A stretch of 64,000 bases of DNA from a virus (IMGVR_UViG_3300025133_000055:1-64000), one strand, 5' to 3'; positions 38,640 through 56,881 are shown, counted from the first letter of the stretch. Numbers and translations: made by a program. The notes: generated by a model from the letters alone, not told the origin.

Positions 38640-39449
38640 ATGAAAATCGCAAGGAAGGTGTTAAGAAGCTTATTTGTTTTAATGTGCTTTATGTTAATTG
38701 TAACAACTCCCGGCTGCACAAAGATCGGGTCCTCTTTCTCTGATCTTGAAAAAAGTATCAAAGATGCACAGCAGGGACAGGAGTGTTGTTATTTAGAATA
38801 TGGTGTGAAAGAAAAGATAAGGGGTCGCGCCAATAAGGTGTCGAGAGAGTCCACCGTAAAAGTGGTGGTTCAAACGGAAAGAGGCACCTATCGTGGAACT
38901 GGTAGCTATTTTGTTTACAAGGGTCATCATATTGTGATCACTGCTGGGCATCTTTTCGCAGAAGGGCTTCCAACTGTTTTGGATTCGGAAGCTCTCATAA
39001 CAGCGCCTACTGAAAAAGTAGTTGGGACGCTGGCTTATTTCGATCCCTATACTGATATGGCAGTCTTTAGGGTTGCCCCCCTGGAAAGCCGCAAGCCGGC
39101 TAAGTTTGTACGCACGCCAAACTATGTGGTGGGGGATCCGGTGGTGTACTCGGGGTTTCCAGGCTCAAACAATCTGCTCACTCTTAATGGTGAGATAGCT
39201 GGAGATGGTTACGGAACCGATCTCGCCATTCAGTCATTTGCATGGGGCGGCTCGTCTGGATCGGGTGTCTTTGATGCCAAGGGTCATTTCGTTGGTGTGG
39301 TAGTCTCTATTATGGTGGGTCGAAGCCTGTTCGGATATCCAGAAAAAATTGGTTCAATTGTGTATGTGGCACCAGCCAATTTAATAGATATGGTTTATTT
39401 GAGACAAAATTTAGATAAATTGGAGGCGACAATGAATGACGGTTTTTAG
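38640..39449 (+). CDS. exported trypsin-like serine protease
   Basis: Signal peptide ending PGC, TAGH, D, GGSSGSGV. Confidence 0.85.
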   Translation: MKIARKVLRSLFVLMCFMLIVTTPGCTKIGSSFSDLEKSIKDAQQGQECCYLEYGVKEKIRGRANKVSRESTVKVVVQTERGTYRGTGSYFVYKGHHIVITAGHLFAEGLPTVLDSEALITAPTEKVVGTLAYFDPYTDMAVFRVAPLESRKPAKFVRTPNYVVGDPVVYSGFPGSNNLLTLNGEIAGDGYGTDLAIQSFAWGGSSGSGVFDAKGHFVGVVVSIMVGRSLFGYPEKIGSIVYVAPANLIDMVYLRQNLDKLEATMNDGF

Positions 39450-40407
39450 AAATGTTTTGTTAATAGTTTTCTCGGTTCTTTTGATGAGTTGTGATAATGG
39501 AATCGATTATGTCGTCCACGGTGGAGAAGGAGAGGTAGAGACAGAAACAATTATCAAATACATTGTCACGGAACCAGAGGCAGATATTTGGATTGATTCA
39601 TTCATACAGATTGAGGCATATGAGGCGATAGATATTGTATGGGTCATCGATGGTTCCTGCTCGATGATGTCACACCAGACTCGATTACTCGCCGGAATCG
39701 AACACATGATGAACAATCTCCCCCCCGATGTAAATTGGAGGCTCAAAATGATAACCGCCGGTGACGGTTCCTATGTTACACAGCCTACAACTTTTCCACT
39801 GACAAGGGGTGATGACATCGCAGATGCCATGAATATGTATAATCAGTTGCCCAATGACGGACAAGAGAAGGGTTTCGATGCTATAAAGAATTATGTAACA
39901 CTTGATGTATATGCTAAAACTTGGATGCGCAGCGATGCCGCACTATTAGTGGTCTTCGTCACTGATGAGAGAGAGCAAAGCCCTATGACAACAACAGACT
40001 TTATTAACTGGTATGCTTGGCTCAGGCCATCTGTTTATTTGTCATTTATCGGAAATGTGGACACGGAAGATTCGATTTGTCCTTACAAAACAAATTATTC
40101 CACCATTGGAAGAAAATATATGGATGCGGTAAGTCACTTTTCAGGTACTATAATTGATATCTGTGAGACTGATTGGTCAGCCGGTGTCGATGATGCAACT
40201 CAAAACATTGAGCCGATTGTGGAGTGGGAACTGACCCATGTGCCCTATGTTGATACACTGGTGGTCTTTGAAGATAATGCCCCGATGGACAGTAGCAAGT
40301 GGACATACAGTGCGGTGGACAATATGATTGAGTTTTCGACAACTCCACCAGAAAATTCTTTGATAGAAATTGGGTATGCTATCAAATTTTATAAATTAAA
40401 CCCTTAA
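39436..40407 (+). CDS. VWA-domain lipoprotein
   Basis: LLMSC lipobox; MIDAS DGSCS; VFVTDE. Confidence 0.8.
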   Translation: MTVFRNVLLIVFSVLLMSCDNGIDYVVHGGEGEVETETIIKYIVTEPEADIWIDSFIQIEAYEAIDIVWVIDGSCSMMSHQTRLLAGIEHMMNNLPPDVNWRLKMITAGDGSYVTQPTTFPLTRGDDIADAMNMYNQLPNDGQEKGFDAIKNYVTLDVYAKTWMRSDAALLVVFVTDEREQSPMTTTDFINWYAWLRPSVYLSFIGNVDTEDSICPYKTNYSTIGRKYMDAVSHFSGTIIDICETDWSAGVDDATQNIEPIVEWELTHVPYVDTLVVFEDNAPMDSSKWTYSAVDNMIEFSTTPPENSLIEIGYAIKFYKLNP

Positions 40408-40737: not shown

Positions 40738-41070
40738 ATGAGTGATTCTATTGAGGGAGAAATAGAGGCTTCCGGCGCCGAGGACTTGAAGCCCAAACCT
40801 CCTGCCAAGCTGGCGCCACGCGGAATAAGAACTTTCACGGTTTGTCGGCAGCACGATGAAACGGGAGTATCTGGTGAGGGAGTGGTCATCGAAGGTGTCG
40901 TTCTGGGAACTGGTCAGTGTATCGTTCATTGGCTTTATCCCACACCCCGAGGTGGTATAGCGATTTTTGATTCAATGAGCGACTTCATTAAAGTACACAT
41001 TGGACCGCATCCGAGCAATAAAACAATAATAACTTATCAAGACGGGGAGCAAGATCTTTATGGAAACTAG
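40738..41070 (+). CDS. conserved phage hypothetical protein
   Basis: DETGVSGEGVVIEGV...W motif. Confidence 0.6.
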   Translation: MSDSIEGEIEASGAEDLKPKPPAKLAPRGIRTFTVCRQHDETGVSGEGVVIEGVVLGTGQCIVHWLYPTPRGGIAIFDSMSDFIKVHIGPHPSNKTIITYQDGEQDLYGN

Positions 41071-42338: not shown

Positions 42339-42367
42339 TTGACAAGGTGCCTCGCATGGTGTATAAT
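42339..42367 (+). promoter_or_regulatory. sigma70 consensus promoter opening the early region
   Basis: TTGACA-N17-TATAAT. Confidence 0.75.
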
Positions 42368-42901: not shown

Positions 42902-43153
42902 TTGAGGTATTCGAATATGATGAAGCCAGGACAGATCATTCAGCACTGCTGTAAATTTCTCGATAAGGAAGAAGAAGAAATGGACCGCCATTTAATTTTA
43001 TCGGTGGATGAAGAATGGCTGGAAACTTATGTTTTGTTTACTAACTGGCCGGAAGGCCCACATCGTGTGGGTGAACTTCAGCAAATACTCGTTTCAACTA
43101 TCGAGTCCGAAGAAGAGACAACGAACAATTTTTATTGGAAAATAGTCTCTTGA
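42902..43153 (+). CDS. beta-barrel-like paralogue
   Basis: MKPGQIIQ...YWKIV. Confidence 0.6.
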   Translation: MRYSNMMKPGQIIQHCCKFLDKEEEEMDRHLILSVDEEWLETYVLFTNWPEGPHRVGELQQILVSTIESEEETTNNFYWKIVS

Positions 43154-43204
43154 CATTCTCTTGACAACTTAGTTGTTGACATGAGGCTCTTTATCCTGTA
43201 TAAT
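43150..43204 (+). promoter_or_regulatory. triple-TTGACA early promoter 1
   Basis: TTGACA-N5-TTGACA-N9-TTGACA-N17-TATAAT. Confidence 0.85.
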
Positions 43205-43231
43205 ATGGGTATAGAAAACGGAGAAACCAAA

Positions 43232-43471
43232 TTGTTTAGAAACTGGATAATTCAGAGCGGCGATAATGTAATCATTGATGAGTGGTGTTCATGCTGCACC
43301 CCGGAAGAAGAAGAGTGCAGCCCTCGTTTCTTCGTTATCGACGACCCGAATAACGCCGTGCATTCGCCCGGCGACCTCTATATTCGCTGCACGTGTTATG
43401 CTTCGGGCGATTCAGATTATGCAGTTGGTGAAACTTATCTAAAAAGAACCGTGGATCTAAAGGTATTATAG
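43232..43471 (+). CDS. Cys-rich hypothetical protein
   Basis: TTG start after GGAG, downstream of the promoter. Confidence 0.5.
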   Translation: MFRNWIIQSGDNVIIDEWCSCCTPEEEECSPRFFVIDDPNNAVHSPGDLYIRCTCYASGDSDYAVGETYLKRTVDLKVL

Positions 43472-43749
43472 TGCAGTTTAAGCCTGGACAAATGTTAAAA
43501 ATTGTCGGTGCCGAAGGATCGGGTGAGTGGGGTGTGTTCATAGTGTTGGAAAATATGCCTGATAATGGAATTAAACTTTGGACCGTTTCTGCGCCCAAAG
43601 CATGGTCAAACACCCTTTCAAGACAGACATTTATTTTCGAACCCCAACTATGGCTCGATCGACATGGCGGTGAATACATTGAAATATTAAGTGAAGAGAC
43701 GGCATCACTCAATGAAGCCCCCAAGGGAAAACAACGAAATGAAGTTTAA
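43471..43749 (+). CDS. beta-barrel-like paralogue
   Basis: FKPGQMLK. Confidence 0.6.
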   Translation: MQFKPGQMLKIVGAEGSGEWGVFIVLENMPDNGIKLWTVSAPKAWSNTLSRQTFIFEPQLWLDRHGGEYIEILSEETASLNEAPKGKQRNEV

Positions 43750-43915
43750 AGTAGGAGATTTAGTAAAGCATAAAGTTGCCGGTTGGATCGGTCATATTTT
43801 GGATATGACCGAGAGGGATATTACCATCCGAGTTATGTACGAACCAAGGGGAACAATCTGGCCAGTGATTTTATTGTTCCCTTCACAACTGGAATTGCTG
43901 GAAAAAGTATTATGA
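43739..43915 (+). CDS. beta-barrel-like paralogue
   Basis: MKFKVGDLVKH. Confidence 0.6.
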   Translation: MKFKVGDLVKHKVAGWIGHILDMTERDITIRVMYEPRGTIWPVILLFPSQLELLEKVL

Positions 43916-43939
43916 AAAGACATTACAAACCAATCAAAC

Positions 43940-44203
43940 ATGAAGGAAAACATGATCAAAACTTGTAAACATTGTGGAATTGAATTTAACTTATACTCAC
44001 GTCAGAAAAAACTGGTCGGAGGTTATATAAATGAGTGTCCAGACTGCGTTGAGGAATTGGGTGGTGACCAGTCAGAGCCTAGACATTTCGGTGTCACTGG
44101 TTCCTGTGGCTCTGTGAATATCCGACGATTCGATAGTGAGGAAGATAGAAAACAATTTCAAAAAGATTATGAATCTACCAAAACAATTAAGGATTTCTTA
44201 TAA
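43940..44203 (+). CDS. zinc-ribbon protein
   Basis: CKHC...CPDC. Confidence 0.6.
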   Translation: MKENMIKTCKHCGIEFNLYSRQKKLVGGYINECPDCVEELGGDQSEPRHFGVTGSCGSVNIRRFDSEEDRKQFQKDYESTKTIKDFL

Positions 44204-44439
44204 TGTCGATGCTCGAAGAACTTCAGGGCTACCCTCTCCCAGATCCCTCTTTCCAATGGAGGGACGAGGCAGAAATTTATACTTTGGAGCAGTCTGATTC
44301 GTCTTGGGTTTTGTACTGCGACGGCATGTCAGTTCGCGATAACTTTGGATATCCCATCATTTTCGAGACTAGCTGGGATGCAAAAAAGTATGCGAAGGAG
44401 ATTTTAGGGCACGAAGATGTGGTCTTGACATTCTCTTGA
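44203..44439 (+). CDS. hypothetical protein
   Basis: TAATG coupling. Confidence 0.5.
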   Translation: MSMLEELQGYPLPDPSFQWRDEAEIYTLEQSDSSWVLYCDGMSVRDNFGYPIIFETSWDAKKYAKEILGHEDVVLTFS

Positions 44440-44479
44440 CAACTTTTCTCTTGACCTGACCTAAAATATCGTGTATAAT
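44425..44479 (+). promoter_or_regulatory. triple-TTGACA early promoter 2
   Basis: TTGACA-N5-TTGACA-N9-TTGACC-N17-TATAAT. Confidence 0.85.
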
Positions 44480-44512
44480 ATAGATACATTTCAACCAAAG
44501 GAGCATTTTCAA

Positions 44513-44683
44513 ATGCCTTATCGTGACGAACCATCCCTTAAAGACCTTTACACTATTTCTTCTGAGGAATACTACGAAGAAAACTATGATTTTGGCGGGT
44601 CATATGATCCAATGCCTCTCGATATGGAGGAAGAATGCCCACAATGGATGCAGGAGCAAATTGATGAAGAAATCCCCTTTTAA
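44513..44683 (+). CDS. small acidic protein ending DEEIPF
   Basis: AGGAG + ATG; MPYRDEPS...QIDEEIPF. Confidence 0.6.
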   Translation: MPYRDEPSLKDLYTISSEEYYEENYDFGGSYDPMPLDMEEECPQWMQEQIDEEIPF

Positions 44684-44921
44684 AAATGGAGATACTGTTA
44701 CTCTGACCTTTCGTAGAAAGGACAGAAAGGCATCGTCACGCACTCGCAATAGAATAAGGGAACACGGGCCGGAATTCGTGGTGAGACAATCACCACGGGC
44801 CTTTAGGGGTGCGGGAGAGCTTGAAAATCGCCTGTGTGTTATGTTAGAGCCGGTCCCAAATCCAAACGAGTGGGCCGGTTGGTTGCCACTGGATGAAATA
44901 GAGATTATAAATGTCGTTTAA
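44664..44921 (+). CDS. beta-barrel-like paralogue
   Basis: FKNGDTV...WAGWLPLDEI; start reassigned. Confidence 0.55.
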   Translation: MKKSPFKNGDTVTLTFRRKDRKASSRTRNRIREHGPEFVVRQSPRAFRGAGELENRLCVMLEPVPNPNEWAGWLPLDEIEIINVV

Positions 44922-45129
44922 ATTTAAAACAGGACAAATCATTGACATGGAAAAACGCTCGCTGCTCGGCCGCCGCGTGTATCGGTATATCATTCTAGGC
45001 CCAGGCGAGAACCGGGGTTTCTCCTTGGTTTATTGCATGCACTCACCGCGAGATCATGATGTAGGGCAAACCTTCTCTATGAATAATTTTGTTCTAAACG
45101 CCGCAGGAGTCGCTGTTGATGGAATTTGA
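44911..45129 (+). CDS. beta-barrel-like paralogue
   Basis: FKTGQII. Confidence 0.6.
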   Translation: MSFKFKTGQIIDMEKRSLLGRRVYRYIILGPGENRGFSLVYCMHSPRDHDVGQTFSMNNFVLNAAGVAVDGI

Positions 45130-45349
45130 AGTTGGCCAAGCTGTTGAGGAATTTTATTCCGATAGTCATAAGTGGGTTTCCACCTACCTTATCCTTCAAG
45201 TGGATTATGTGGGAAGGGTAGTCGAGGCGCTGTGCCTGGGAGAATCGGAAGATCACGGCTACACTGGCGGACATATTGTGAAATTCCCCTTTACTGTTTT
45301 CACGGATCCGCCCGAGAGTTATTGGAAAGTAAATGAAAAATCAGTTTAA
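45116..45349 (+). CDS. beta-barrel-like paralogue
   Basis: FEVGQAV...YWKV. Confidence 0.6.
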   Translation: MMEFEVGQAVEEFYSDSHKWVSTYLILQVDYVGRVVEALCLGESEDHGYTGGHIVKFPFTVFTDPPESYWKVNEKSV

Positions 45350-45596
45350 ACCTGGGCAAATCATTAACGAGTATTGTGTATGGAAAACTGACAGATTGTT
45401 TTCGTCTTATTTAATAATTGATGAAGGCGGTTATCAAAATATGCACTGGAAATGTTTGTGTATATATAACGACTGTGCCGATATCAGGGAAAAGCCAGGA
45501 GAAACGCGCTTTATCAAAAAAGAGTGGCTGGCAAATCAGTCCAGCGCGAAGCAGCGCAACTGGCCATCTTTCTGGAAAATTGAAAATGAAGTTTGA
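45333..45596 (+). CDS. beta-barrel-like paralogue
   Basis: MKNQFKPGQII...FWKI. Confidence 0.6.
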   Translation: MKNQFKPGQIINEYCVWKTDRLFSSYLIIDEGGYQNMHWKCLCIYNDCADIREKPGETRFIKKEWLANQSSAKQRNWPSFWKIENEV

Positions 45597-45792
45597 AACA
45601 GGACAAATCGTTGTGCAATCTATGAATGGCATCCAGGGAATTGTTTTGGAACACAAGACTACACCTCACAATTCGTATTACAATAAGGTAATTATCTACT
45701 GTACTTTCGCTCCTCACAATTCATCATTGGTTGGACAAGCCCTGGAGCTTAGCGCCTTTGGGCTAAAGGTTAAAGATGAAAAATCAGTTTAA
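45586..45792 (+). CDS. beta-barrel-like paralogue
   Basis: MKFETGQIV; start reassigned. Confidence 0.6.
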   Translation: MKFETGQIVVQSMNGIQGIVLEHKTTPHNSYYNKVIIYCTFAPHNSSLVGQALELSAFGLKVKDEKSV

Positions 45793-46060
45793 ACCTGGGG
45801 ATTTGATTGGGAACGCCCCAAATGGATACCATCCCGATGAGCCACTGCCTCCACAACTCATGGCGAGTGGCGATTTCCGAGGTATAATCTTGGATATCAA
45901 TAGTATCGGAGACGGCGGCTTTCGTCAGTGGTGCATAACGCTGCTTATCACGCTGAATCTAAATTACAATGAGTATTTTCAGAAAGAATACCCCGTTAAT
46001 ACAGTTAAAACCTTAACAATCAACGACCTTTCAAAATGGAGAAAGATAATAAATGTTTGA
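45776..46060 (+). CDS. beta-barrel-like paralogue
   Basis: MKNQFKPGDLI...WRKI. Confidence 0.6.
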   Translation: MKNQFKPGDLIGNAPNGYHPDEPLPPQLMASGDFRGIILDINSIGDGGFRQWCITLLITLNLNYNEYFQKEYPVNTVKTLTINDLSKWRKIINV

Positions 46061-46298
46061 AGCAATTTACATCAACCGAGATCAGGCTTTTGAATTCGAT
46101 AATGGGCAGGATCTCTATTTTGGTCCGGTTGGAACTTGGTTTTCAGTCCGCGCCGATGCTCTCCTGAGATCCCGTCCTGGCGGATACGACAAGACTCACA
46201 CTGAAATACTAAAATCATATGGTACAGAAAATATCCTGCTTGTACGCACACAATCCTGCGGTCCAGGCTGGTATCAAATTCACCCGAACGAAAGATAG
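46053..46298 (+). CDS. hypothetical protein
   Basis: Overlap-coupled ORF. Confidence 0.5.
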   Translation: MFEAIYINRDQAFEFDNGQDLYFGPVGTWFSVRADALLRSRPGGYDKTHTEILKSYGTENILLVRTQSCGPGWYQIHPNER

Positions 46299-46304
46299 AT
46301 TATA

Positions 46305-46315
46305 AACTATTTATA
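46305..46315 (+). promoter_or_regulatory. late-type motif directly upstream of an early promoter
   Basis: AACTATTTATA. Confidence 0.4.
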
Positions 46316-46321
46316 AAGTTG

Positions 46322-46376
46322 TTGACATTCTCTTGACAACTTTTTTATTGACTCCAACTGAAAAACCCTGTATAAT
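46322..46376 (+). promoter_or_regulatory. triple-TTGACA early promoter 3
   Basis: TTGACA-N5-TTGACA-N9-TTGACT-N17-TATAAT. Confidence 0.85.
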
Positions 46377-46405
46377 GTATATACATTCAACGGAGATCCT
46401 CTCAC

Positions 46406-46996
46406 ATGCCCGCACAACTTGAACGAATTGAAAAACTCCTCGAAAATCAGGACTTGTCAGCTTCTAACCGCTCTTTCGCGGAGTCGTTGAGGAATAGCCA
46501 CAAAAAGTGGAAATCTCTCACTTTTGCTCAGTGGTCTGCATTCGAGAGGATGGAAGCCCGCTATGACCCTGCCGTCATTAACGCTCGAAAAGAGTGGACC
46601 AATGCCTGGAATAACGAAAAGGCTAAGAACCTTCGCATTGCTGCTGAGTATTACCTTCAAAATCCGCCTTATTTCGGTGACATCGCCGCGAAGATTGTTT
46701 CGGACGAAACTTATGTTCCGTCTGCTAAGCTTTATCGCAAGATGGTCGAAAACAAGTACGTTCAAAAGGTGCTTACAACCCGTGCTTCCGAGCCTGCCTT
46801 TGAAGTCGGCTCGCTGGTAAAGGTTCGCAAAACCAGTAGAAATCACCGTCTGAGAGATCGGATCGCTATGGTTGTCGATAATAACGGAGTAGTCAAGACA
46901 TCAGCTAAGGGAGGAAAAACCTACACTATCCTTCCTTTCGGTGAAGCGAACACGATCCAGATCGAAGAACGTTGGCTCAAAAGACACCGAGGATAA
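46406..46996 (+). CDS. hypothetical protein with C-terminal beta-barrel
   Basis: Helical N-terminus, then FEVGSLVKV. Confidence 0.7.
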   Translation: MPAQLERIEKLLENQDLSASNRSFAESLRNSHKKWKSLTFAQWSAFERMEARYDPAVINARKEWTNAWNNEKAKNLRIAAEYYLQNPPYFGDIAAKIVSDETYVPSAKLYRKMVENKYVQKVLTTRASEPAFEVGSLVKVRKTSRNHRLRDRIAMVVDNNGVVKTSAKGGKTYTILPFGEANTIQIEERWLKRHRG

Positions 46997-46998
46997 AG

Positions 46999-47238
46999 AT
47001 GCTTGAACCTGTACAATTGAAGGCCGGGGATGTTATCTCTCAAGTCCACGGCGAAAAGGAAGTTTTAAGGGTAGCTTTAACGAAGGCCGACGAGGAGATT
47101 TTGGAGGGTTACATTTTGCTCAGCGATTACGAAACCTGGGGGCAGGAAAACATAGGGGAAACCTTCCGAATGACGACGGATTATTTTTCAGCATGGTCGA
47201 ATAATAAAACTGCCTTTGTTTATTGGAGGGTAGTGTGA
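46999..47238 (+). CDS. beta-barrel-like paralogue
   Basis: LKAGDVIS...YWRVV. Confidence 0.6.
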   Translation: MLEPVQLKAGDVISQVHGEKEVLRVALTKADEEILEGYILLSDYETWGQENIGETFRMTTDYFSAWSNNKTAFVYWRVV

Positions 47239-47260
47239 AAACACAGATTTAAACTTGAAT

Positions 47261-47476
47261 ATGGCCAAGTGGGGCCAATTAACAAAAAACCCAGCCCGTT
47301 GCTGTATAGGGCTGGCTCTCGATTCTAAGGGTTGAAGGTTGCTTATCGTGGATGCGGTACATAAAGGGCTTTCTATCTCCATTATCGAGGGGGCTACCAT
47401 GAGAGTGTCAACAACAGATTTATGCAGATAGGAAGTCGGCTATCCGAGAAAAACGACACCGGCCCCACTTGGTCAT
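47261..47476 (+). ncRNA. candidate structured non-coding RNA
   Basis: 16-bp closing stem enclosing three nested stems; no credible ORF. Confidence 0.55.
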
Positions 47477-47511
47477 CATCTATTTACCAGTTTGAAACTT
47501 TATAAAATCTC

Positions 47512-47566
47512 TTGACATTTTCTTTACAATTTAGTTATTGACTTGAACCGAAATATCCTGTATAAT
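47512..47566 (+). promoter_or_regulatory. triple-TTGACA early promoter 4
   Basis: TTGACA-N5-TTTACA-N9-TTGACT-N17-TATAAT. Confidence 0.8.
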
Positions 47567-47592
47567 ATAGGTACAAATTAGGAGTTCCCAGT

Positions 47593-48369
47593 ATGTCTAT
47601 TCGCCGTCCAAATTCTGCCCATAAAAGAACCGTCCGTTGCTCATTTTGCTATGAGAGAGGACATAACAAGTCATCCTGTCCAAAATACGCCGCGAAAATA
47701 GAGGATTTTCGTACTAAATACGGTGATGACCATTATGATGTCCGCCGCTTTGACGCGAAGAAAGCCAGAAGACACGCGAAGGCCAAGGATCGCAAGTGCT
47801 CATATTGCGACGGGAAAGGCCACAATCGCGCGACCTGTCCTGAACTACTCAGCCACATTCGCGAAAGTCAGGCTAAAACCGCCTCTTTCCGCAAGTCGAT
47901 GCTCGCGCGAATGAAGGCGCTGGGAATTGGTGTTGGGACTGTTTTGTCAACGGATAGGTTTATGGGTCGCACCAATAAGGATGATTATGAATCTGCGCGC
48001 TATCGCATCCCGCACGTTATTACACTTATAAACTGGGATAATATCAATCACTTTAATCGAGAATACTCTTATTTTGATGGCAATGCCCCGTGGGTTTCCA
48101 AGCCTTTATGCGAGATCTCGGCACGTTGGAATAGTGAACCGGGCTGGCCCTGGGACGCCGAAATTGTGAAGTTACTTATGGGAGAAGCAAATGCGACAGA
48201 ATGGATTGAAGGAACCCACTGGCGATTCGATCGAAGGATGCAATATTTTTGTGATGTAGAATGCCCGGTACCAACCCCACAGCCGCCCCACAAGTGGCTT
48301 CTCGGGGGAGATCTAAAGTATTGGAAAGGGATTTATAAGAAAACAAAATCCTATTCAGGGGCTTTGTAA
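47593..48369 (+). CDS. double zinc-knuckle (CCHC) protein
   Basis: CSFCYERGHNKSSC and CSYCDGKGHNRATC (CX2CX4HX4C). Confidence 0.8.
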   Translation: MSIRRPNSAHKRTVRCSFCYERGHNKSSCPKYAAKIEDFRTKYGDDHYDVRRFDAKKARRHAKAKDRKCSYCDGKGHNRATCPELLSHIRESQAKTASFRKSMLARMKALGIGVGTVLSTDRFMGRTNKDDYESARYRIPHVITLINWDNINHFNREYSYFDGNAPWVSKPLCEISARWNSEPGWPWDAEIVKLLMGEANATEWIEGTHWRFDRRMQYFCDVECPVPTPQPPHKWLLGGDLKYWKGIYKKTKSYSGAL

Positions 48370-48383
48370 GCCTCTTTTCACCC

Positions 48384-48438
48384 TTGACATTCTCTTGACA
48401 ACTTTCTTATTGACCTAAGCCAAAATATCGTGTATAAT
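48384..48438 (+). promoter_or_regulatory. triple-TTGACA early promoter 5
   Basis: TTGACA-N5-TTGACA-N9-TTGACC-N17-TATAAT. Confidence 0.85.
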
Positions 48439-48484
48439 GTATACATAACTTGAACCTCTTCCCTACTTATCACTGGAGCCTAAA

Positions 48485-49639
48485 ATGTCCGTCGCCATCA
48501 CATTCTCAAACCTCTCTTCAATGATCCCGGCCCTTTTATCGGGTGACGAAAACAACCTTTATTCCGTTCTTATCCGTGGTCGCCACGGTATCGGCAAATC
48601 GTGGATTGCATACCAGACCGCCGCTGGCCTGACGTGGGATAAGAAGGCCAAAACTACGCGCCCGATTAAGAAGGGCGAAACTCCTCTTCCGGTAGAAGAG
48701 CAGCGCGCATCACAGATGACTGAGGGCGATCTGCTGGGTTTGCCGAGTCCAGAGATGGTTAAGATCAATGGCGAGCTTGCGGCCAACCTGCGCCCATTTG
48801 CTTGGCTTATAAGGGCATGCACGGAGCCGGTTGTGCTTTTCCTCGATGAGATCGATCGAGGCACCACCGAGGTACGTCAGGGATTTTTCCAGCTTGGCGA
48901 TAGCCGTCAAATCAACGGCTGGAAATTGCACCCTGGAACCGTTGTTTTCGGTGCAGTCAACGGCGGCGTTCACGCAGCCCAGTATCAGGTCGCCGATATG
49001 GATCCCGCAGAACTTGATCGCTGGGTTACTTTCGATGTCGAACCTTCTATTGAAGATTGGCTTAACTGGGGCAAAACCGAGGTTCATCCTATCGTATGGG
49101 ACTTTATTAATCAGAATCACGATCATCTGGAGCACAAAGGCGAATTTGAGCCGGGTACCGTATACCCATCACGCCGATCGTGGCACCGCTTGAGTAACAC
49201 ACTCGCTAAGGTCGATATGCTCGACGACGAAAACGCCGATTTAGGCTTGCTTTTCAACCTGAGTCATGGATTTGTCGGCTTTGAAGCTGCGGTTTGCTTC
49301 CGCGACTTCGTTGAGAATTTCGAGCGTCAAGTAACCGTTGAGGATATCTTAGATGATGGCAAGATCGAGAAAACCAAAGATTTTGGCCTAGTTGATCATG
49401 TCGCTTTAATTGAGAAAATGGCAGCACGCGCCGTATTCGCTGCTAAAATTGAGGATCCCCGAATGATCAATTTAGTCGCCTACTTTGATGCACTCCCGGC
49501 TGAGGCTCGAATGAAGTTATTCACAACTTTAACTGAGGACAATAACCAGATCTCAGCGGACAACGGCTCCACATTCCACAGAGAATTAGCTAGACAGGGC
49601 AAGGTTGGAGCATTTATTAAGCTTCTCGGTGGGAAGTAA
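48485..49639 (+). CDS. MoxR-like AAA+ ATPase
   Basis: GRHGIGKS, DLLGLP, LFLDEIDR, DPAELDRW, PSRRSW. Confidence 0.85.
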   Translation: MSVAITFSNLSSMIPALLSGDENNLYSVLIRGRHGIGKSWIAYQTAAGLTWDKKAKTTRPIKKGETPLPVEEQRASQMTEGDLLGLPSPEMVKINGELAANLRPFAWLIRACTEPVVLFLDEIDRGTTEVRQGFFQLGDSRQINGWKLHPGTVVFGAVNGGVHAAQYQVADMDPAELDRWVTFDVEPSIEDWLNWGKTEVHPIVWDFINQNHDHLEHKGEFEPGTVYPSRRSWHRLSNTLAKVDMLDDENADLGLLFNLSHGFVGFEAAVCFRDFVENFERQVTVEDILDDGKIEKTKDFGLVDHVALIEKMAARAVFAAKIEDPRMINLVAYFDALPAEARMKLFTTLTEDNNQISADNGSTFHRELARQGKVGAFIKLLGGK

Positions 49640-49649
49640 AACACAGGTT

Positions 49650-49673
49650 GAAGGGGGCTTTTTCGCCCCCTTC
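49650..49673 (+). terminator. hairpin after the AAA gene
   Basis: gaagggggc-N6-gcccccttc 9-bp stem; weak U tract. Confidence 0.45.
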
Positions 49674-49679
49674 GGCCTC

Positions 49680-49734
49680 TTGACATTCTTTTGACAATTG
49701 TTTTATAGACAAGTGCACTAAGATCGTGTATAAT
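49680..49734 (+). promoter_or_regulatory. triple-TTGACA early promoter 6
   Basis: TTGACA-N5-TTGACA-N9-TAGACA-N17-TATAAT. Confidence 0.8.
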
Positions 49735-49759
49735 ATATATATAAATCGGAGCTTCCTAC

Positions 49760-51112
49760 ATGACAACTATCGCCACAAAACCCGCTACTGAGGTTCTACC
49801 TTTTAATCTCGATGAACACATTGTTGATCTTTTGAGAGATGAACCCTTTTTTGCCGCTTTATCCCGTCGTATGGATAAGGTACCTTCAACCCGGATCCCT
49901 ACCGCTGGCGTGTGCTTAAATGAGGAACGATGCCGGTTTGAACTGGTTTATAACCCGATCTTCATGGGATCGATCCTTGCACGCGATAGGAAATTCGTTA
50001 AGGGTATTTTGCTCCATGAATTTTATCACATTGTGCTTTTGCATGTCACTACTCGCTTGCCAGATGGTAAAATGTCTAAAAAGTGGAATATTGCAACCGA
50101 TTTAGCGATTAATAGCGATCTTTCAATCTTTGATCACGCCGAGACATCTACAGGCTGGAAAATGGTTAGTACAATATTGCCCGAAGAAGCACTGTTTCCG
50201 ACCGTAGGCCCATTTGCAGAGTTTCCACCGGGATTATCGGCCGAGGAGTATCTTGAAATGCTGCCCGAGGGCGACGACGAAGGCGACGAAGGCGACGAAG
50301 GCGGCGAAGGCGAAGGCTCCGGCGCTGGGAAGGGAAAAGGGCAGAAAGAAAGTGATGAATCCGACGAAGGTGAGGAGGGAAGTGAGGGATCTGGCGATAG
50401 TGACGGTCCCTCCTCACCTTCCGAGGGTCACGGTGACCATTCCAATTGGGGCGACTCTGACGGTACAGATGAAAAACGTAAGATTGCGGAAGAGCGCCTA
50501 AAGGAAAATATTAAAGAGTCTTTCGTTGAGTCGCAATCTAAGGGGTTCGGATCTGTATCGGCTGGCATGCGCCGACAAATTAAAGAAGCGATCACACCTA
50601 AAGTCAATTGGCGTTCTATCCTTCGTTCATTCGTCAAGGCTTCTCAAAGAGCGGATAGAACCTCGACAATTAAGAAATTAAATCGCCGCTATGCCTATAT
50701 CCATCCGGGCCGCAAAGCAAAGCGCCAAGCGAAAATAGCGGTTTCAATTGATCAATCGGGCAGTGTGTCCGATCAAATGCTTGTCGCATTTTACGCCGAG
50801 CTTGAAAAGCTTTCTCAGCTTGCTGAATTCACGGTAATCCCCTTTGATACCGAGGTTGCCGAGGATCATGTTCACGTCTGGAAAAAAGGTGAGCGTCATG
50901 AGAAGGCCCGTTATAGATACGGCGGAACCTGCTTTAATTGCTGCACCAAATGGGTCAACGAACGACAGTTCGATGGTCACATTGTCCTGACTGATATGGA
51001 GGCTCCTAAGCCGGTTCCGAGCAAGTCTCAGCGTATGTGGATGACAACCAAGCGATGCGCCGAGCACCCTTATTTCAAAACCAACGAAAGAGTGATCGCA
51101 ATCGATGATTAA
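49760..51112 (+). CDS. HEXXH metallopeptidase-like + VWA protein (DUF2201 type)
   Basis: LLHEFYH, WNIATDLAIN, acidic linker, DQSGS, GGTCF, LTD. Confidence 0.85.
   Translation: MTTIATKPATEVLPFNLDEHIVDLLRDEPFFAALSRRMDKVPSTRIPTAGVCLNEERCRFELVYNPIFMGSILARDRKFVKGILLHEFYHIVLLHVTTRLPDGKMSKKWNIATDLAINSDLSIFDHAETSTGWKMVSTILPEEALFPTVGPFAEFPPGLSAEEYLEMLPEGDDEGDEGDEGGEGEGSGAGKGKGQKESDESDEGEEGSEGSGDSDGPSSPSEGHGDHSNWGDSDGTDEKRKIAEERLKENIKESFVESQSKGFGSVSAGMRRQIKEAITPKVNWRSILRSFVKASQRADRTSTIKKLNRRYAYIHPGRKAKRQAKIAVSIDQSGSVSDQMLVAFYAELEKLSQLAEFTVIPFDTEVAEDHVHVWKKGERHEKARYRYGGTCFNCCTKWVNERQFDGHIVLTDMEAPKPVPSKSQRMWMTTKRCAEHPYFKTNERVIAIDD
50267..50317 (+). repeat. 9-bp tandem repeat (gaaggcgac) in the acidic linker
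   Basis: Encodes EGDDEGDEGDEGGEGEG. Confidence 0.7.
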
Positions 51113-51371
51113 AGAGTTTAAAACCGAGGAATTGAAGGTAGGTGATATAATATCCCTTCGCGCGGGTTTACAGCCCGCTCCTCTTGATCATTTTACAGAA
51201 TGGTCCAGGCTGGCAATCTTTGAGATTACCAATAGGTTAATTAGAACCGTTATTTTGCTTGATAGGACTGATGGCTTCGCGCCCGGAACCCTTTACAATT
51301 TCCAGATAATCGACTTAGAACGGGCCTTAGAGACAGGCGCCCGTTGGAGGCTTTTGTGCGATTCAAAGTAG
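51105..51371 (+). CDS. beta-barrel-like paralogue
   Basis: LKVGDII...PGTLY...WRLL. Confidence 0.6.
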   Translation: MIKEFKTEELKVGDIISLRAGLQPAPLDHFTEWSRLAIFEITNRLIRTVILLDRTDGFAPGTLYNFQIIDLERALETGARWRLLCDSK

Positions 51372-51589
51372 GCGATTTGGTACTTAATAGGCTGGAATCC
51401 GAGCAGGGCGAAGAGGTAGATTGCGAGGGGATTATCGTCCAGCACTGGCAAACGCCGAGCATGGACGGCCCTGGAACTGTCGATAACGTAGTTTTATACA
51501 TAACTCTCGACCGGTCATGGCCCACACAAACGAATAAAGTAGTTACACACCGGGGTTTCAAAGAATTCCAATGGGAACTAAAACAATGA
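51356..51589 (+). CDS. beta-barrel-like paralogue
   Basis: FKVGDLV...WELK. Confidence 0.6.
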   Translation: MRFKVGDLVLNRLESEQGEEVDCEGIIVQHWQTPSMDGPGTVDNVVLYITLDRSWPTQTNKVVTHRGFKEFQWELKQ

Positions 51590-51641
51590 AGCCCAGGTTT
51601 ATGCAGGTTGAAAGGGGATTCTCGGCTCTATCTACTACAGG

Positions 51642-51902
51642 ATGGAGCACAAATTCAAAAGGGGCGACCTAATACAATATATCAGGACCGAAGCACTTTA
51701 TCTGCTATTGGAGCAAGTGGAACTCACAGAGCTTACCACCAAATATAAGAGGAAGGGAGTCGGTTTTCGCGTGATGGTGATTTATTCAGGTAGAAGCTAC
51801 ACAAAGCAGAGTACAATAACAACAATTTTTATTCCTTTCACTGCACCCTATTATGTAGTTTTAAGCTCGGCTCTCGGCGCCACCCAGGAAAACCGGGCTT
51901 GA
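51642..51902 (+). CDS. beta-barrel-like paralogue
   Basis: FKRGDLIQY. Confidence 0.6.
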   Translation: MEHKFKRGDLIQYIRTEALYLLLEQVELTELTTKYKRKGVGFRVMVIYSGRSYTKQSTITTIFIPFTAPYYVVLSSALGATQENRA

Positions 51903-51951
51903 ACGCCGATTTTTATTCGCCAAATTTTTTTAATCCACTAGGGACAACGAT

Positions 51952-52176
51952 ATGCTAGATTTAAAGCCAGGAATGTTAATTGAAGTCATAAGTCCGGTCC
52001 TTACCGAGGACAACCGCATATGGCACCTCCTCATATTGGAGGAAGAACCCGCACATTGGGTGACTCGCATGGTTTATAATAATACGAAAAAGCCAAAAGA
52101 TTACTTTCGCATCGAGAAATTATATTTAGAAAACAGATCGAGAGCGAATCAACTTAGAATCCTATCCGAAATTTAA
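51952..52176 (+). CDS. beta-barrel-like paralogue
   Basis: LKPGMLIE. Confidence 0.6.
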   Translation: MLDLKPGMLIEVISPVLTEDNRIWHLLILEEEPAHWVTRMVYNNTKKPKDYFRIEKLYLENRSRANQLRILSEI

Positions 52177-52222
52177 TAAATGACAATGAAAGATATATTT
52201 TTCGATACCCCAGAGGCCAAAA

Positions 52223-52573
52223 GTGAATCCTCACATATATGAATATATTTTTAGTCCTGGCGATATTGTAGCTGAAAGCTGGACTTTGCCCGAGAGTGGC
52301 AATATAAAAAGAGAAGAGGTTCTCCGCGTGCTTATCATTGATAAGCGAGATAGATGGTGCGATATGAACGATATCTATTATGTAGAATACCAAACAAGGG
52401 TAGTTTTTGCGCATCCCGATCGGCTTCCGCTCCATCCAGAAGGAAGGGACTTTAAACCCGGTGATACCTGGGTTTTGACGTCTTGGGAAGAGGATAATGT
52501 GAAGAAATGGAATAATGACTGGCGATCGTGGGAAGTCCTGCTTGAATCGGGCTTATCGTGGGAAGGAGAGTAA
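52223..52573 (+). CDS. beta-barrel-like paralogue
   Basis: FSPGDIV...FKPGDTW...WEVL. Confidence 0.6.
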   Translation: MNPHIYEYIFSPGDIVAESWTLPESGNIKREEVLRVLIIDKRDRWCDMNDIYYVEYQTRVVFAHPDRLPLHPEGRDFKPGDTWVLTSWEEDNVKKWNNDWRSWEVLLESGLSWEGE

Positions 52574-52678
52574 AAGTGGGCGTTTGCACCGCGACAATGG
52601 GATACTTTGTCCTATTTCTCTATTTTTCATCGATGGTGACCGCCGTGATTGTCCTCTTGGGAAGGTGGAAATGACGAC

Positions 52679-52733
52679 TTTACAAGCCCTTGACATAATA
52701 AAGATGTACAATAAGCCGCTTACGCGGTATAAT
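52679..52733 (+). promoter_or_regulatory. degenerate triple-hexamer early promoter 7
   Basis: TTTACA-N5-TTGACA-N9-TGTACA-N17-TATAAT, same geometry as promoters 1-6. Confidence 0.65.
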
Positions 52734-52967
52734 ATGTATATGAAATCGAGCACTTCACCACTTTTTACCCTTCCCGCGCGCTTCCTGCTCGTCTGCGCGA
52801 TTATGGAGTTTATAACTTGCTTTCTAAGTCAAACCAAAAATATTGGAGGATTCACCGCCGATGACATTCAGTTTGGCGCGTTATGTTTGGAAGTCGCGCA
52901 CCCATCCCGCAAAAGCCCCTTTAACCTTGCTTTTCACCAAAGCTATCACTTTCAGTCAGAGAGCATT

Positions 52968-53240
52968 ATGTCTTTAAAAACCGACAAATCCACACCCCTT
53001 GAGGCGGCGAATAGCGCCGCTTCATCCTTCGCTATTAACCTGCTCCTTAACACGGCTATCACCGAGACTCTCAAGACCATCGAAAAAATGCGCTTAGAAG
53101 GCCAGGAATTGCTCGGCGAGTTCAAGGCGAGTGAGGGTCCAGCGAAAGAGAAGGTTAAAACTGCCATATCGCTGAACATTCAAGACCGCAAATTCCTGCT
53201 AAAAGCTATTTTTACGAACCCTATCGAAAAGGATGTTTAA
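52968..53240 (+). CDS. hypothetical protein
   Basis: Helical C-terminal part of the 52515 ORF; true start uncertain. Confidence 0.5.
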   Translation: MSLKTDKSTPLEAANSAASSFAINLLLNTAITETLKTIEKMRLEGQELLGEFKASEGPAKEKVKTAISLNIQDRKFLLKAIFTNPIEKDV

Positions 53241-54944: not shown

Positions 54945-55056
54945 ATAAGTCAGCTTTATGCTGGCTTTTTTTTTGTCAAGCATTATTATAACGAATTGAT
55001 ACAATGTTGACAATAAAGTGCTTGACAAGGGAAAAGCCAGCATCAAGCTGGCTTAT
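54945..55056. repeat. inverted repeat 1 (38-bp arms, 33/38)
   Basis: 54945-54982 vs 55019-55056; each arm is itself a terminator-like hairpin. Confidence 0.9.
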
Positions 55057-55384
55057 AGAGAATTGATATAAACTTGACAACTTTGTGCTTGACAGGGGAA
55101 AGCCGGGGTTTAAACTTATATATAAGTTACCAGCCCATATTGAAAGGGGGATCGCCCTAAGAGAAGTTTATAACTGACCTTTCGTTTGTCAAGTATTATT
55201 ATGACGAATTGACATAAGATTGACATTAATTTGCTTGACAGACGAAAGGTCAGTTATAAACTTGGCTATGACGAATTGACATTCAATTGACATTCTCTTG
55301 ACAACTTAGTGCTTGACAGGCTACTAATTACTTTGTAACTCCCTTATGGCGAATTGACATGCATTTGACACAAATCGCTTGACA
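54986..55384 (+). repeat. array of five TTGACA-triplet direct repeats
   Basis: Units at 54986, 55053, 55199, 55266, 55344; consensus TTAT.ACGAA-TTGACA-N5-TTGACA-N6-TGC-TTGACA. Confidence 0.9.
55164..55263. repeat. inverted repeat 2 (30-bp arms, 29/30)
   Basis: 55164-55193 vs 55234-55263. Confidence 0.9.
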
Positions 55385-55452
55385 CAAATTAATAAGTTAC
55401 AACCTGACATATCGACGATCCCAACTGATTTGTCAGGTTTAAAGGGGCATAT

Positions 55453-55475
55453 GGGGGGGGTCCCCCCCTCCCCCC
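55453..55475. other. G8-T-C7-T-C6 homopolymer tract
   Basis: Directly visible; anomalous in an AT-rich genome. Confidence 0.8.
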
Positions 55476-56362: not shown

Positions 56363-56871
56363 AAAACTTGACAGAATTCGAGTTCTATGGTATAATAAAG
56401 TATGAAGAGATGCTTTGAGTGCGACAAGACCGAAGATAATATTGAGATACATGATCACCATGTTGTCCCAAAAAGCCGTGGTGGAACGAAGACAATACCC
56501 CTTTGCTATGTGTGCCATGCATTGGTGCATGATAAGAGGGCAGTATCTAGTAGATATTTGATAAGGCAGGCACATAAAGAAAGAAGAAGTAAGGGCCTTG
56601 TCTGCGGCCACCCTCCTTACGGCTTCAGTCGTGGGGAAAAGGATGAACTTGTTGTGAACCCAGAGGAGCAAGCCATCTGGACTTATGTTGAGGAACTACG
56701 AAGCACACCACTAGGAAAAAAGAAAAAGCACCCGTGGCGAGCAATTGCCGAGAAACTAAACGAGCAAGGATTCAAAAACCGCTCTGGTCGTGAGTGGAAA
56801 CTTCACAATCTGTTCGTAATCAACAAAACCAAAAACAAAAACTTGACAGAATTCGAGTTCTATGGTATAAT
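56363..56871 (+). mobile_element. HNH gene insertion bounded by exact 34-bp direct repeats
   Basis: aaaacttgacagaattcgagttctatggtataat at 56363-56396 and 56838-56871. Confidence 0.65.
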
Positions 56872-56881
56872 GGAAGAATAG
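56402..56881 (+). CDS. HNH endonuclease fused to a serine-recombinase-type DNA-binding domain
   Basis: CFEC...HHVVPKSRGG...LCYVCHALVH plus PPYGF...AIAEKLNEQG...GREW. Confidence 0.75.
   Translation: MKRCFECDKTEDNIEIHDHHVVPKSRGGTKTIPLCYVCHALVHDKRAVSSRYLIRQAHKERRSKGLVCGHPPYGFSRGEKDELVVNPEEQAIWTYVEELRSTPLGKKKKHPWRAIAEKLNEQGFKNRSGREWKLHNLFVINKTKNKNLTEFEFYGIMEE

Follow-up and report, generated by a model that had tools for sequence, protein, structure and literature searches.

Known upstream elements of promoters are either A/T-rich UP (upstream promoter) elements or the sites of individual activators. The early promoters of T4 are 'uber' promoters of the UP/-35/TGn/-10 type, whose shut-off is still unexplained (PMC2988021). 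Regulators of the OmpR/PhoB family bind tandem direct repeats of ~11 bp in a head-to-tail manner and contact sigma region 4, the beta flap and the C-terminal domain of the alpha subunit (alpha-CTD) of RNA polymerase (PMC11825685, PMC2275107), and in T4-type phages promoter-early stem-loop cassettes (PeSLs) mediate gene shuffling (PMC2839356, PMC4122927). Here we describe a whole class of sigma-70-type promoters that use a fixed pair of -35 look-alikes upstream of the -35 hexamer. Seven of them reside in the stretch of 64,000 nucleotides analyzed in this study (IMGVR_UViG_3300025133_000055:1-64000; the window), which forms the beginning of an IMG/VR virus record of 87,145 bp with an estimated completeness of 48%. 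The record is referred to as G000, and the related genomes compared with it as G001 onward.

All seven sites are located on the plus strand, exactly where a preliminary description of this DNA had placed them (Table 1), and share the 55-bp structure TTGACA-N5-TTGACA-N9-TTGACN-N17-TATAAT, with N5, N9 and N17 identical throughout. A search of the entire record with this pattern, allowing up to two mismatches, returned these 7 forward matches, none on the reverse strand and none with the backwards-read control. At the same tolerance the pair of upstream hexamers (boxes 1 and 2) was found 20 times in the window, versus 7.7 +/- 2.9 times in shuffled sequences (maximum 16). Both boxes are better conserved than the -35, as had been noticed at the outset: each is perfect in 6/7 sites (the exceptions, TTTACA in both cases, are box 1 of P7 and box 2 of P4), versus 1/7 for the -35, whose other forms are TTGACC and TTGACT (two copies each), TAGACA and TGTACA. 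With respect to the features of sigma-70/sigma-A promoters, the -35 is close to TTGACA, the spacer falls within 17 +/- 1 bp and TATAAT is perfect in 7/7 sites. In six of the seven a TG directly abuts the -10 (TGTATAAT), one base closer than the canonical TGn; a scan for TG before the second hexamer flagged none. P7, which lacks the TG, is the weakest member of the set. With a 17-bp spacer, the boxes lie by geometry at about -61 to -56 and -50 to -45. They often overlap the end of the preceding gene, and the TGA of a box is the stop codon of two open reading frames (ORFs), ending at 43153 and 44439. The record contains ten other promoters of the form TTGACA-N16/17-TATAAT, all with a single -35 and without upstream boxes. 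The -35 is perfect in 10/10 of these, versus 1/7 of the boxed promoters.

This promoter design is widespread in a large clade of uncultured marine phages with genomes of ~190-205 kb. One related complete genome (G001; 205,517 bp, ~50% protein identity), found via the VWA protein of the block, has 12 promoters built in this way, all within a single stretch of 13 kb. An exact 19-mer spanning both boxes matched 40 IMG/VR stretches (~30 contigs), from which 156 unique promoters were collected. These conform to the consensus CTC-TTGACA-TTCTC-TTGACA-ACTTA-nnyc-TTGACt-N17-TATAWT and precede a short, conserved leader that contains a Shine-Dalgarno sequence. Around the boxes, each position from -3 to +21, the spacers TTCTC and ACTTA included, carries 0.4-2.2 bits, and the upstream flank and the -35/-10 spacer carry ~0 bits; the box sequence is common to genomes whose core proteins are only 52-57% identical.

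To remove ascertainment by the motif, we also fetched 80 loci via the MoxR-like protein encoded in the block (328 relatives). In this protein-chosen IMG/VR set, 48/82 related loci carry 4-15 triple promoters and 34/82 carry none. The promoters of the boxed lineages were selected here only on TGnTAYAWT and a TTG at the -35, and 137 of the 148 possess the pair, with a gap to the -35 of N9 in 132 and N8 in 5. The -35/-10 spacer is 17 bp in 117/131, 16 bp in 8 and 18 bp in 6, and no upstream repeat other than TGACA with a period of 11 recurs. Five further complete boxed genomes (~195-205 kb) contain 9-13 copies each, on one strand and within one 13-15-kb block, and four complete box-less sister genomes contain none; control patterns gave 0 in both groups. 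Confinement to one block, together with conservation in many related phage genomes, upholds the view that the seven sites form a separate class. Boxed loci cannot be told from box-less ones by their GC content. On trees of the four conserved block genes the boxed lineages are not monophyletic (6-7 trait changes are needed), and in the core-gene tree, which is star-like, the boxed genomes all fall on the same side of a weakly supported branch (support 82). No description of tandem TTGACA boxes at phage promoters was found in the literature searched.

A variant pair, GTGACA-N4-GTGACA (period 10), occupies the same place before similar TTG-N20-TATAWT promoters in three contigs (L115/L258/L288, L289, L310); the matches obtained in a scan for this variant were mostly due to chance, with promoter context in these three contigs only. 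Here half-sites and phase changed together, as predicted for a site that co-evolves with a dimeric reader; the spread of a founder cassette could have the same outcome. In a third lineage (L089, L098) we observed another conserved core, CTTTGAATAAAMC-N12-ACGTCTAAY, which in L089 often follows two A5-GATCA repeats. Both the upstream module and the core therefore vary between lineages of this phage group.

A scan of bacterial and archaeal genomes with the 19-mer gave 8 matches, a number near chance. Five of them represent one orthologous Acidobacteriaceae promoter, and only CP070664.1 (labelled 'candidate division WOR-3 bin77 chromosome'; L076, L081, L082) is related. Scattered pieces of the phage family described here occur in this record: it contains three triple promoters, 36 box pairs where the control pattern gave 9, and a ClpP stretch that shares 79% identity with that of G001. 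It represents either phage contigs binned into a metagenome-assembled genome or a host link; as the record holds phage-like pieces, no host was inferred from it.

The constraint on the boxes differs from that on the -35. In the protein-chosen set the box mismatches (n=61) occur only at positions 1, 3 and, rarely, 6; T2, A4 and C5 never vary, and both boxes exhibit the same pattern. The -35 hexamers of the same promoters have mismatches at positions 4-6 in 30, 34 and 83 of 131 cases (147 in total); their TTG is fixed by the selection of this set, which limits the contrast there to positions 4-6. The full contrast (TTG against ACA) is given by the 19-mer-found set, for which only the -10 served as the selection criterion, with 36 versus 3 mismatches in the boxes and 5 versus 98 in the -35. 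A -35 in which TTG is kept and ACA is loose is the product of reading by sigma region 4. The boxes show the reverse, and therefore another protein, or another binding mode, reads them. Judged by this pattern, sigma region 4 is an unlikely reader of the boxes, and the additional sigma region 4 domains invoked in the preliminary description find no support; moreover, the only sigma region 4-like phage protein occurs in genomes of both classes.

Box-less lineages have, in the same block, promoters with a perfect TTGACA and A-runs directly upstream, also before the orthologous MoxR gene, where the boxed lineages carry the pair. A-runs of >=5 are present in 53% of the box-less-lineage promoters versus 4.6% of the boxed ones, and a perfect TTGACA -35 in 17/32 versus 27/131. 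Thus, the pair exchanges in position with A-tracts. It occupies the region of about -40 to -60 typical of UP elements (the boxes extend from -61 to -45) and does not conform to the A/T-rich consensus with A-tracts. Where the pair is present, the -35 is relaxed, like that of promoters that receive help. Taken together, the location in the UP zone, the exchange with UP-like sequence and the relaxation of the -35 point to a positive recruiting role.

Box hexamers also occur without promoters. Directly downstream of the block, the window contains an array of five box1-box2-box3 units, in which the third hexamer is perfect in 5/5. The units have no good -10; two have TAAACT at 16 bp. Orphan box clusters are present at the same location in G000, G004, G006 and G008 (G005 has a single pair), and none was found in G001, G007 or any box-less genome. 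The coupling of the promoters to the array at 54.9-55.4 kb, postulated earlier, is backed by this co-occurrence. The boxed genomes G001 and G007 lack the array, which is therefore dispensable. G/C tracts similar to the near-palindrome that follows the array (Table 1) were also observed after box arrays in relatives (L035, L059, L062, L064, L067 and, near 180983, G004); this near-palindrome may serve as an origin, for packaging or as a terminator.

The explanation that we prefer, giving it an even chance, is that the boxes constitute an upstream recruitment site that replaces the UP element and is read by a probably dimeric factor. The seven sites would then be members of a conserved composite sigma-70-type class driving one block, presumably expressed early, between the replication and virion modules. 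Sigma region 4 would read the third hexamer, the true -35, and the two upstream boxes (core nTgACA) would together form one 11-bp-phased tandem site for a different protein. The most likely reader is a head-to-tail dimer with the geometry of the winged-helix response regulators. The dimeric factor suggested in the preliminary description fits both the 11-bp geometry and the concerted change to GTGACA-N4-GTGACA. Lying in the zone of the A-tract UP elements of the sister lineages, the pair most probably helps to recruit or hold RNA polymerase, and it would offer a shared handle for controlling the whole gene block. The promoter-less arrays that close the block would be bound by this reader as well, which may come from the host, be injected as a virion protein or be some other phage protein. 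In a more specific model, the tandem boxes would dock an adaptor that recruits polymerase in place of the alpha-CTD/UP contact and is either brought in with the virion or produced by the phage. The arrays would serve as adaptor reservoirs, the adaptor would co-evolve with its site (GTGACA-N4), and the module would be swapped for plain UP elements on a change of host; a 110-aa protein encoded upstream of the block (Table 1) is one candidate. We regard this model as doubtful.

Several observations speak against a dedicated factor that recruits polymerase through the box pair. The boxes equal the exact sigma-70 -35 consensus, which is not explained by a reader unrelated to sigma. The -35, TG and -10 are already strong, and an activator may not be needed. 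The -35 follows box 2 at a step of 15 bp, out of phase with the 11-bp repeat, and the perfect third hexamer of the array would fit a three-box reader, or docking of the holoenzyme, better than a two-box reader. Furthermore, the search for the reader has so far yielded only a lead. The likeness to OmpR/PhoB sites drawn in the preliminary description holds for the 11-bp tandem geometry; G000, G001 and G002 encode no OmpR-type (Trans_reg_C) domain. Within 6 kb of the MoxR gene, no protein cluster is present in all boxed lineages and absent from the box-less ones. Profiling of 10 complete genomes revealed five clusters found in 6/6 boxed and 0/4 box-less genomes; these may be only clade markers. 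The 110-aa protein, whose gene precedes the block by 2-8 kb in all boxed genomes, is also present in 2/35 box-less records. Its structural model is confident (predicted local distance difference test score, pLDDT, of 81) and displays no recognisable DNA-binding fold.

For the 110-aa protein, neither the local Pfam library nor the PDB sequences gave a match, and Foldseek returned none at E <=0.001; it carries the precomputed label PF26761, a family that the local library does not include. Given the star-like tree, the support of 82 and the 2/35 box-less occurrences, its association with the boxes perhaps reflects shared ancestry, and we treat it as a weak candidate for the reader, a lead only. 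Two other candidates were rejected. A protein of ~80-125 aa combining a Zn-ribbon with a sigma region 4-like part is not a class-specific reader, as it is encoded by 9/10 complete genomes of both classes, and none of the four conserved block genes tracks the boxes, as judged from the 6-7 changes on their trees. The sigma region 4-like protein (G001:136237-136476; L026) is a small core protein whose N-terminus is rich in Cys and whose helix-turn-helix resembles region 4 of sigma-70; it is possibly a transcription factor that serves a different class of genes. Among the genomes examined, only the boxed ones encode a cytidylyltransferase-like protein and a TlpA-like thioredoxin lipoprotein (G001:198587-199105 and G001:195075-195671; 76965-77522 in the window's record, L031).

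If the boxes do not recruit polymerase, they may belong to an operator for shut-off: a phage protein made after infection would bind all three hexamers and silence the class, the single -35 promoters would escape, and the arrays would be extra or titrating sites. We consider this unlikely and keep it mainly because the third hexamer of the array is perfect in 5/5 units. Besides this recurrence of the complete box1-N5-box2-N9-box3 unit without a -10, it is consistent with the restriction of arrays to boxed genomes and to the end of the block, with promoters that are strong without help, and with the need of temporal shut-off for a class-specific handle. However, the third hexamer of the real promoters has the constraint pattern of sigma region 4 and not that of the boxes, G001 and G007 have the promoters but no array, and the exchange with UP-like A-tracts argues for a positive role. 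Neither the Trans_reg_C search of G000, G001 and G002 nor the genes within 6 kb of MoxR provided a repressor candidate.

A direct contact with RNA polymerase would require no dedicated factor, and none was found. Here the alpha-CTDs, free sigma or sigma region 4 of further holoenzymes would bind the boxes, which would act as an antenna concentrating host polymerase. Such a universal reader would explain the conservation across diverged phages, and the boxes do equal the -35 consensus, sit in the alpha-CTD/UP zone and exchange with A-tracts. The free positions of the boxes (1 and 3) are nevertheless the reverse of those of a -35 read by sigma region 4. The alpha-CTD prefers A/T tracts, and neither boxes nor spacers are A-tracts (A-run >=5 in 4.6%). 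As implied by the conserved spacers TTCTC and ACTTA and by the GTGACA-N4 variant, the surface that is recognised is longer and can change, and closely related lineages lack the boxes. This makes direct contact distinctly unlikely.

It seems very improbable that the 95-bp promoter unit is only a PeSL-like mobile cassette, kept uniform by duplication and gene conversion, in which the boxes have no binding role. The promoters do flank hypervariable orphan genes, two of them are preceded by hairpins, and the trait is patchy on the local gene trees. The conservation, however, is position-specific and not block-wise: the boxes are near-invariant at 52-57% core identity, next to flanks and a -35/-10 spacer with ~0 bits, and their mismatches avoid T2, A4 and C5. 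Homogenisation within a genome cannot explain identity between genomes, and PeSLs as described have no such boxes. Finally, the alternative already named in the preliminary description, that the sites are three overlapping promoters in which each box, matching TTGACA as it does, is the -35 of its own, has virtually no chance of being right and is refuted at the sequence level, as a -10-like hexamer 16-18 bp after a box was found in 0/7 window sites and 0/131 promoters of relatives.

All genes of the window are on the plus strand. The 0-42 kb upstream of the block encode replication and nucleotide functions (a DnaE-type polymerase, a DnaB-like helicase, a UvsX-like recombinase, ribonucleotide reductase) and GroEL. 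The promoter block itself (12 kb) consists of small, poorly conserved ORFs and four conserved genes, encoding proteins of 196 aa and 258 aa (the latter with a zinc-finger match), a MoxR-like ATPase and a DUF2201 metallopeptidase/VWA protein; the genes between promoter units are hypervariable. Hairpins precede only P5 and P6 (2/7), and the other units overlap the ends of upstream genes. The block is followed by a 970-bp non-coding stretch containing the array and the near-palindrome, and then by genes for ClpP, a radical-SAM protein and others. Several large proteins encoded beyond the end of the window (virion region) have no PHROG match. Rfam and tRNA scans of the window returned nothing, Atlas look-ups of the 196-aa and 258-aa proteins only viral hypothetical clusters, and a megablast of the region against cultured phages no match. 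Thousands of unnamed marine sequences are related to the polymerase; it has no close relative in culture. The sequence is present in marine metagenomes of 21 studies, with no RNA run among the runs listed.

Several additional features were observed. At P7, ATG codons occur 1 and 7 nt past the -10 (52734-52742; ATG at 52740), in frame with an ORF ending at 53240; the mRNA of P7 may be leaderless, or the ORF may have been miscalled. Two identical perfect promoters (56368-56396 and 56843-56871; TTGACA-N17-TATAAT with a canonical TGn and identical spacers), 475 bp apart and without upstream boxes, flank a 159-aa ORF (56402-56881). Boxed genomes encode a VWA-domain lipoprotein of ~320-350 aa (39436-40407 in the window); in box-less genomes its place is taken by a Cys-rich repeat protein of 610-710 aa, the VWA end of which is distantly related (G009:28836-30800 and homologues).

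Table 1. Positions of the boxed promoters and of other features discussed in the text, counted from the first nucleotide of the window.
Feature	Position	Strand	Remarks
P1	43150..43204	+	-35 TTGACA; drives small ORFs from ~43232 to 44439; TGA of ORF 42902-43153 lies in box 1
P2	44425..44479	+	both boxes perfect; -35 TTGACC; drives small ORFs from ~44513 to 46298; stop codon of ORF 44203-44439 lies in box 2
P3	46322..46376	+	both boxes perfect; -35 TTGACT; drives conserved 196-aa gene 46406-46996
P4	47512..47566	+	box 2 TTTACA; -35 TTGACT; drives conserved 258-aa gene 47593-48369 (zf-C2H2_10 match)
P5	48384..48438	+	both boxes perfect; -35 TTGACC; preceded by terminator-like hairpin, ~48357-48375; drives MoxR-like AAA ATPase gene 48485-49639
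P6	49680..49734	+	both boxes perfect; -35 TAGACA; preceded by G+C hairpin, ~49650-49673; drives DUF2201 metallopeptidase/VWA-like gene 49760-51112 and small ORFs after it
P7	52679..52733	+	most degenerate; box 1 TTTACA; -35 TGTACA; no TG
Single -35 comparison promoter	42339..42367	+	perfect TTGACA-N17-TATAAT without boxes, just upstream of the block
Box-less promoters of the record (start of -35)	5954, 9974, 17921, 19854, 26746, 35204, 42339, 56368, 56843, 63150		
Array of five box1-box2-box3 units	54986..55400	+	N5/N9 in four units, N8 in the last; nested in inverted repeats
G/C-rich near-palindrome	55453..55475	.	G runs, then C runs; directly follows the array
110-aa protein	40738..41070	+	well conserved; in all 7 boxed genomes examined, absent from the 4 complete box-less genomes

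Recurring hundreds of times throughout an abundant clade of uncultured marine phages, this promoter class represents a natural experiment on the capture of host RNA polymerase by phages. The signature box-N5-box-N9-TTG-N20-TATAWT is compact enough to mark the gene block in metagenomes, and the box pair provides a defined bait for its reader and possibly for the host.

Like the early promoters of T4, the promoters described here are strong sigma-70 promoters that serve a block of small non-conserved genes and carry extra conserved information at ~-40 to -60, which in T4 raises polymerase capture (PMC2988021). In contrast to T4 and to UP elements in general, this information consists of two GC-containing TGACA boxes in a fixed 11-bp phase instead of A/T tracts, and the phage is not visibly of the T4 type, with its DnaE-type polymerase and its large proteins past the end of the window that have no PHROG match. 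The units also resemble the PeSLs of T4-type phages, which are likely substrates of recombination (PMC2839356, PMC4122927), in that early promoters of nearly identical sequence, some of them preceded by a hairpin, recur among the orphan genes of a hyperplastic region. A PeSL, however, is a stem-loop with a plain sigma-70 promoter and no tandem boxes, whereas the conservation between genomes observed here is specific to the boxes. The sites of lambda CII, TTGC-N6-TTGC with a 10-bp period, straddle the -35 of the weak promoter PRE. They offer a precedent for short direct repeats around a sigma-70 promoter that are read by a phage-specific activator, but in the present case the repeats lie wholly upstream of a good -35.

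The comparison with OmpR/PhoB sites yields both differences and similarities. A gap of 9 bp separates the boxes from the -35, so that they neither abut nor overlap a poor -35, and the TTG is kept in nearly all copies. The resemblance to a pho box, pointed out in the preliminary description, exists on the reverse strand, which reads TGTCA-N6-TGTCA; the core is thus on the opposite strand and away from the -35, and the spacer is not A/T-rich. As in OmpR/PhoB sites, the boxes form a hexamer-N5-hexamer repeat with an 11-bp period and equally constrained half-sites, placed upstream of a somewhat relaxed -35.

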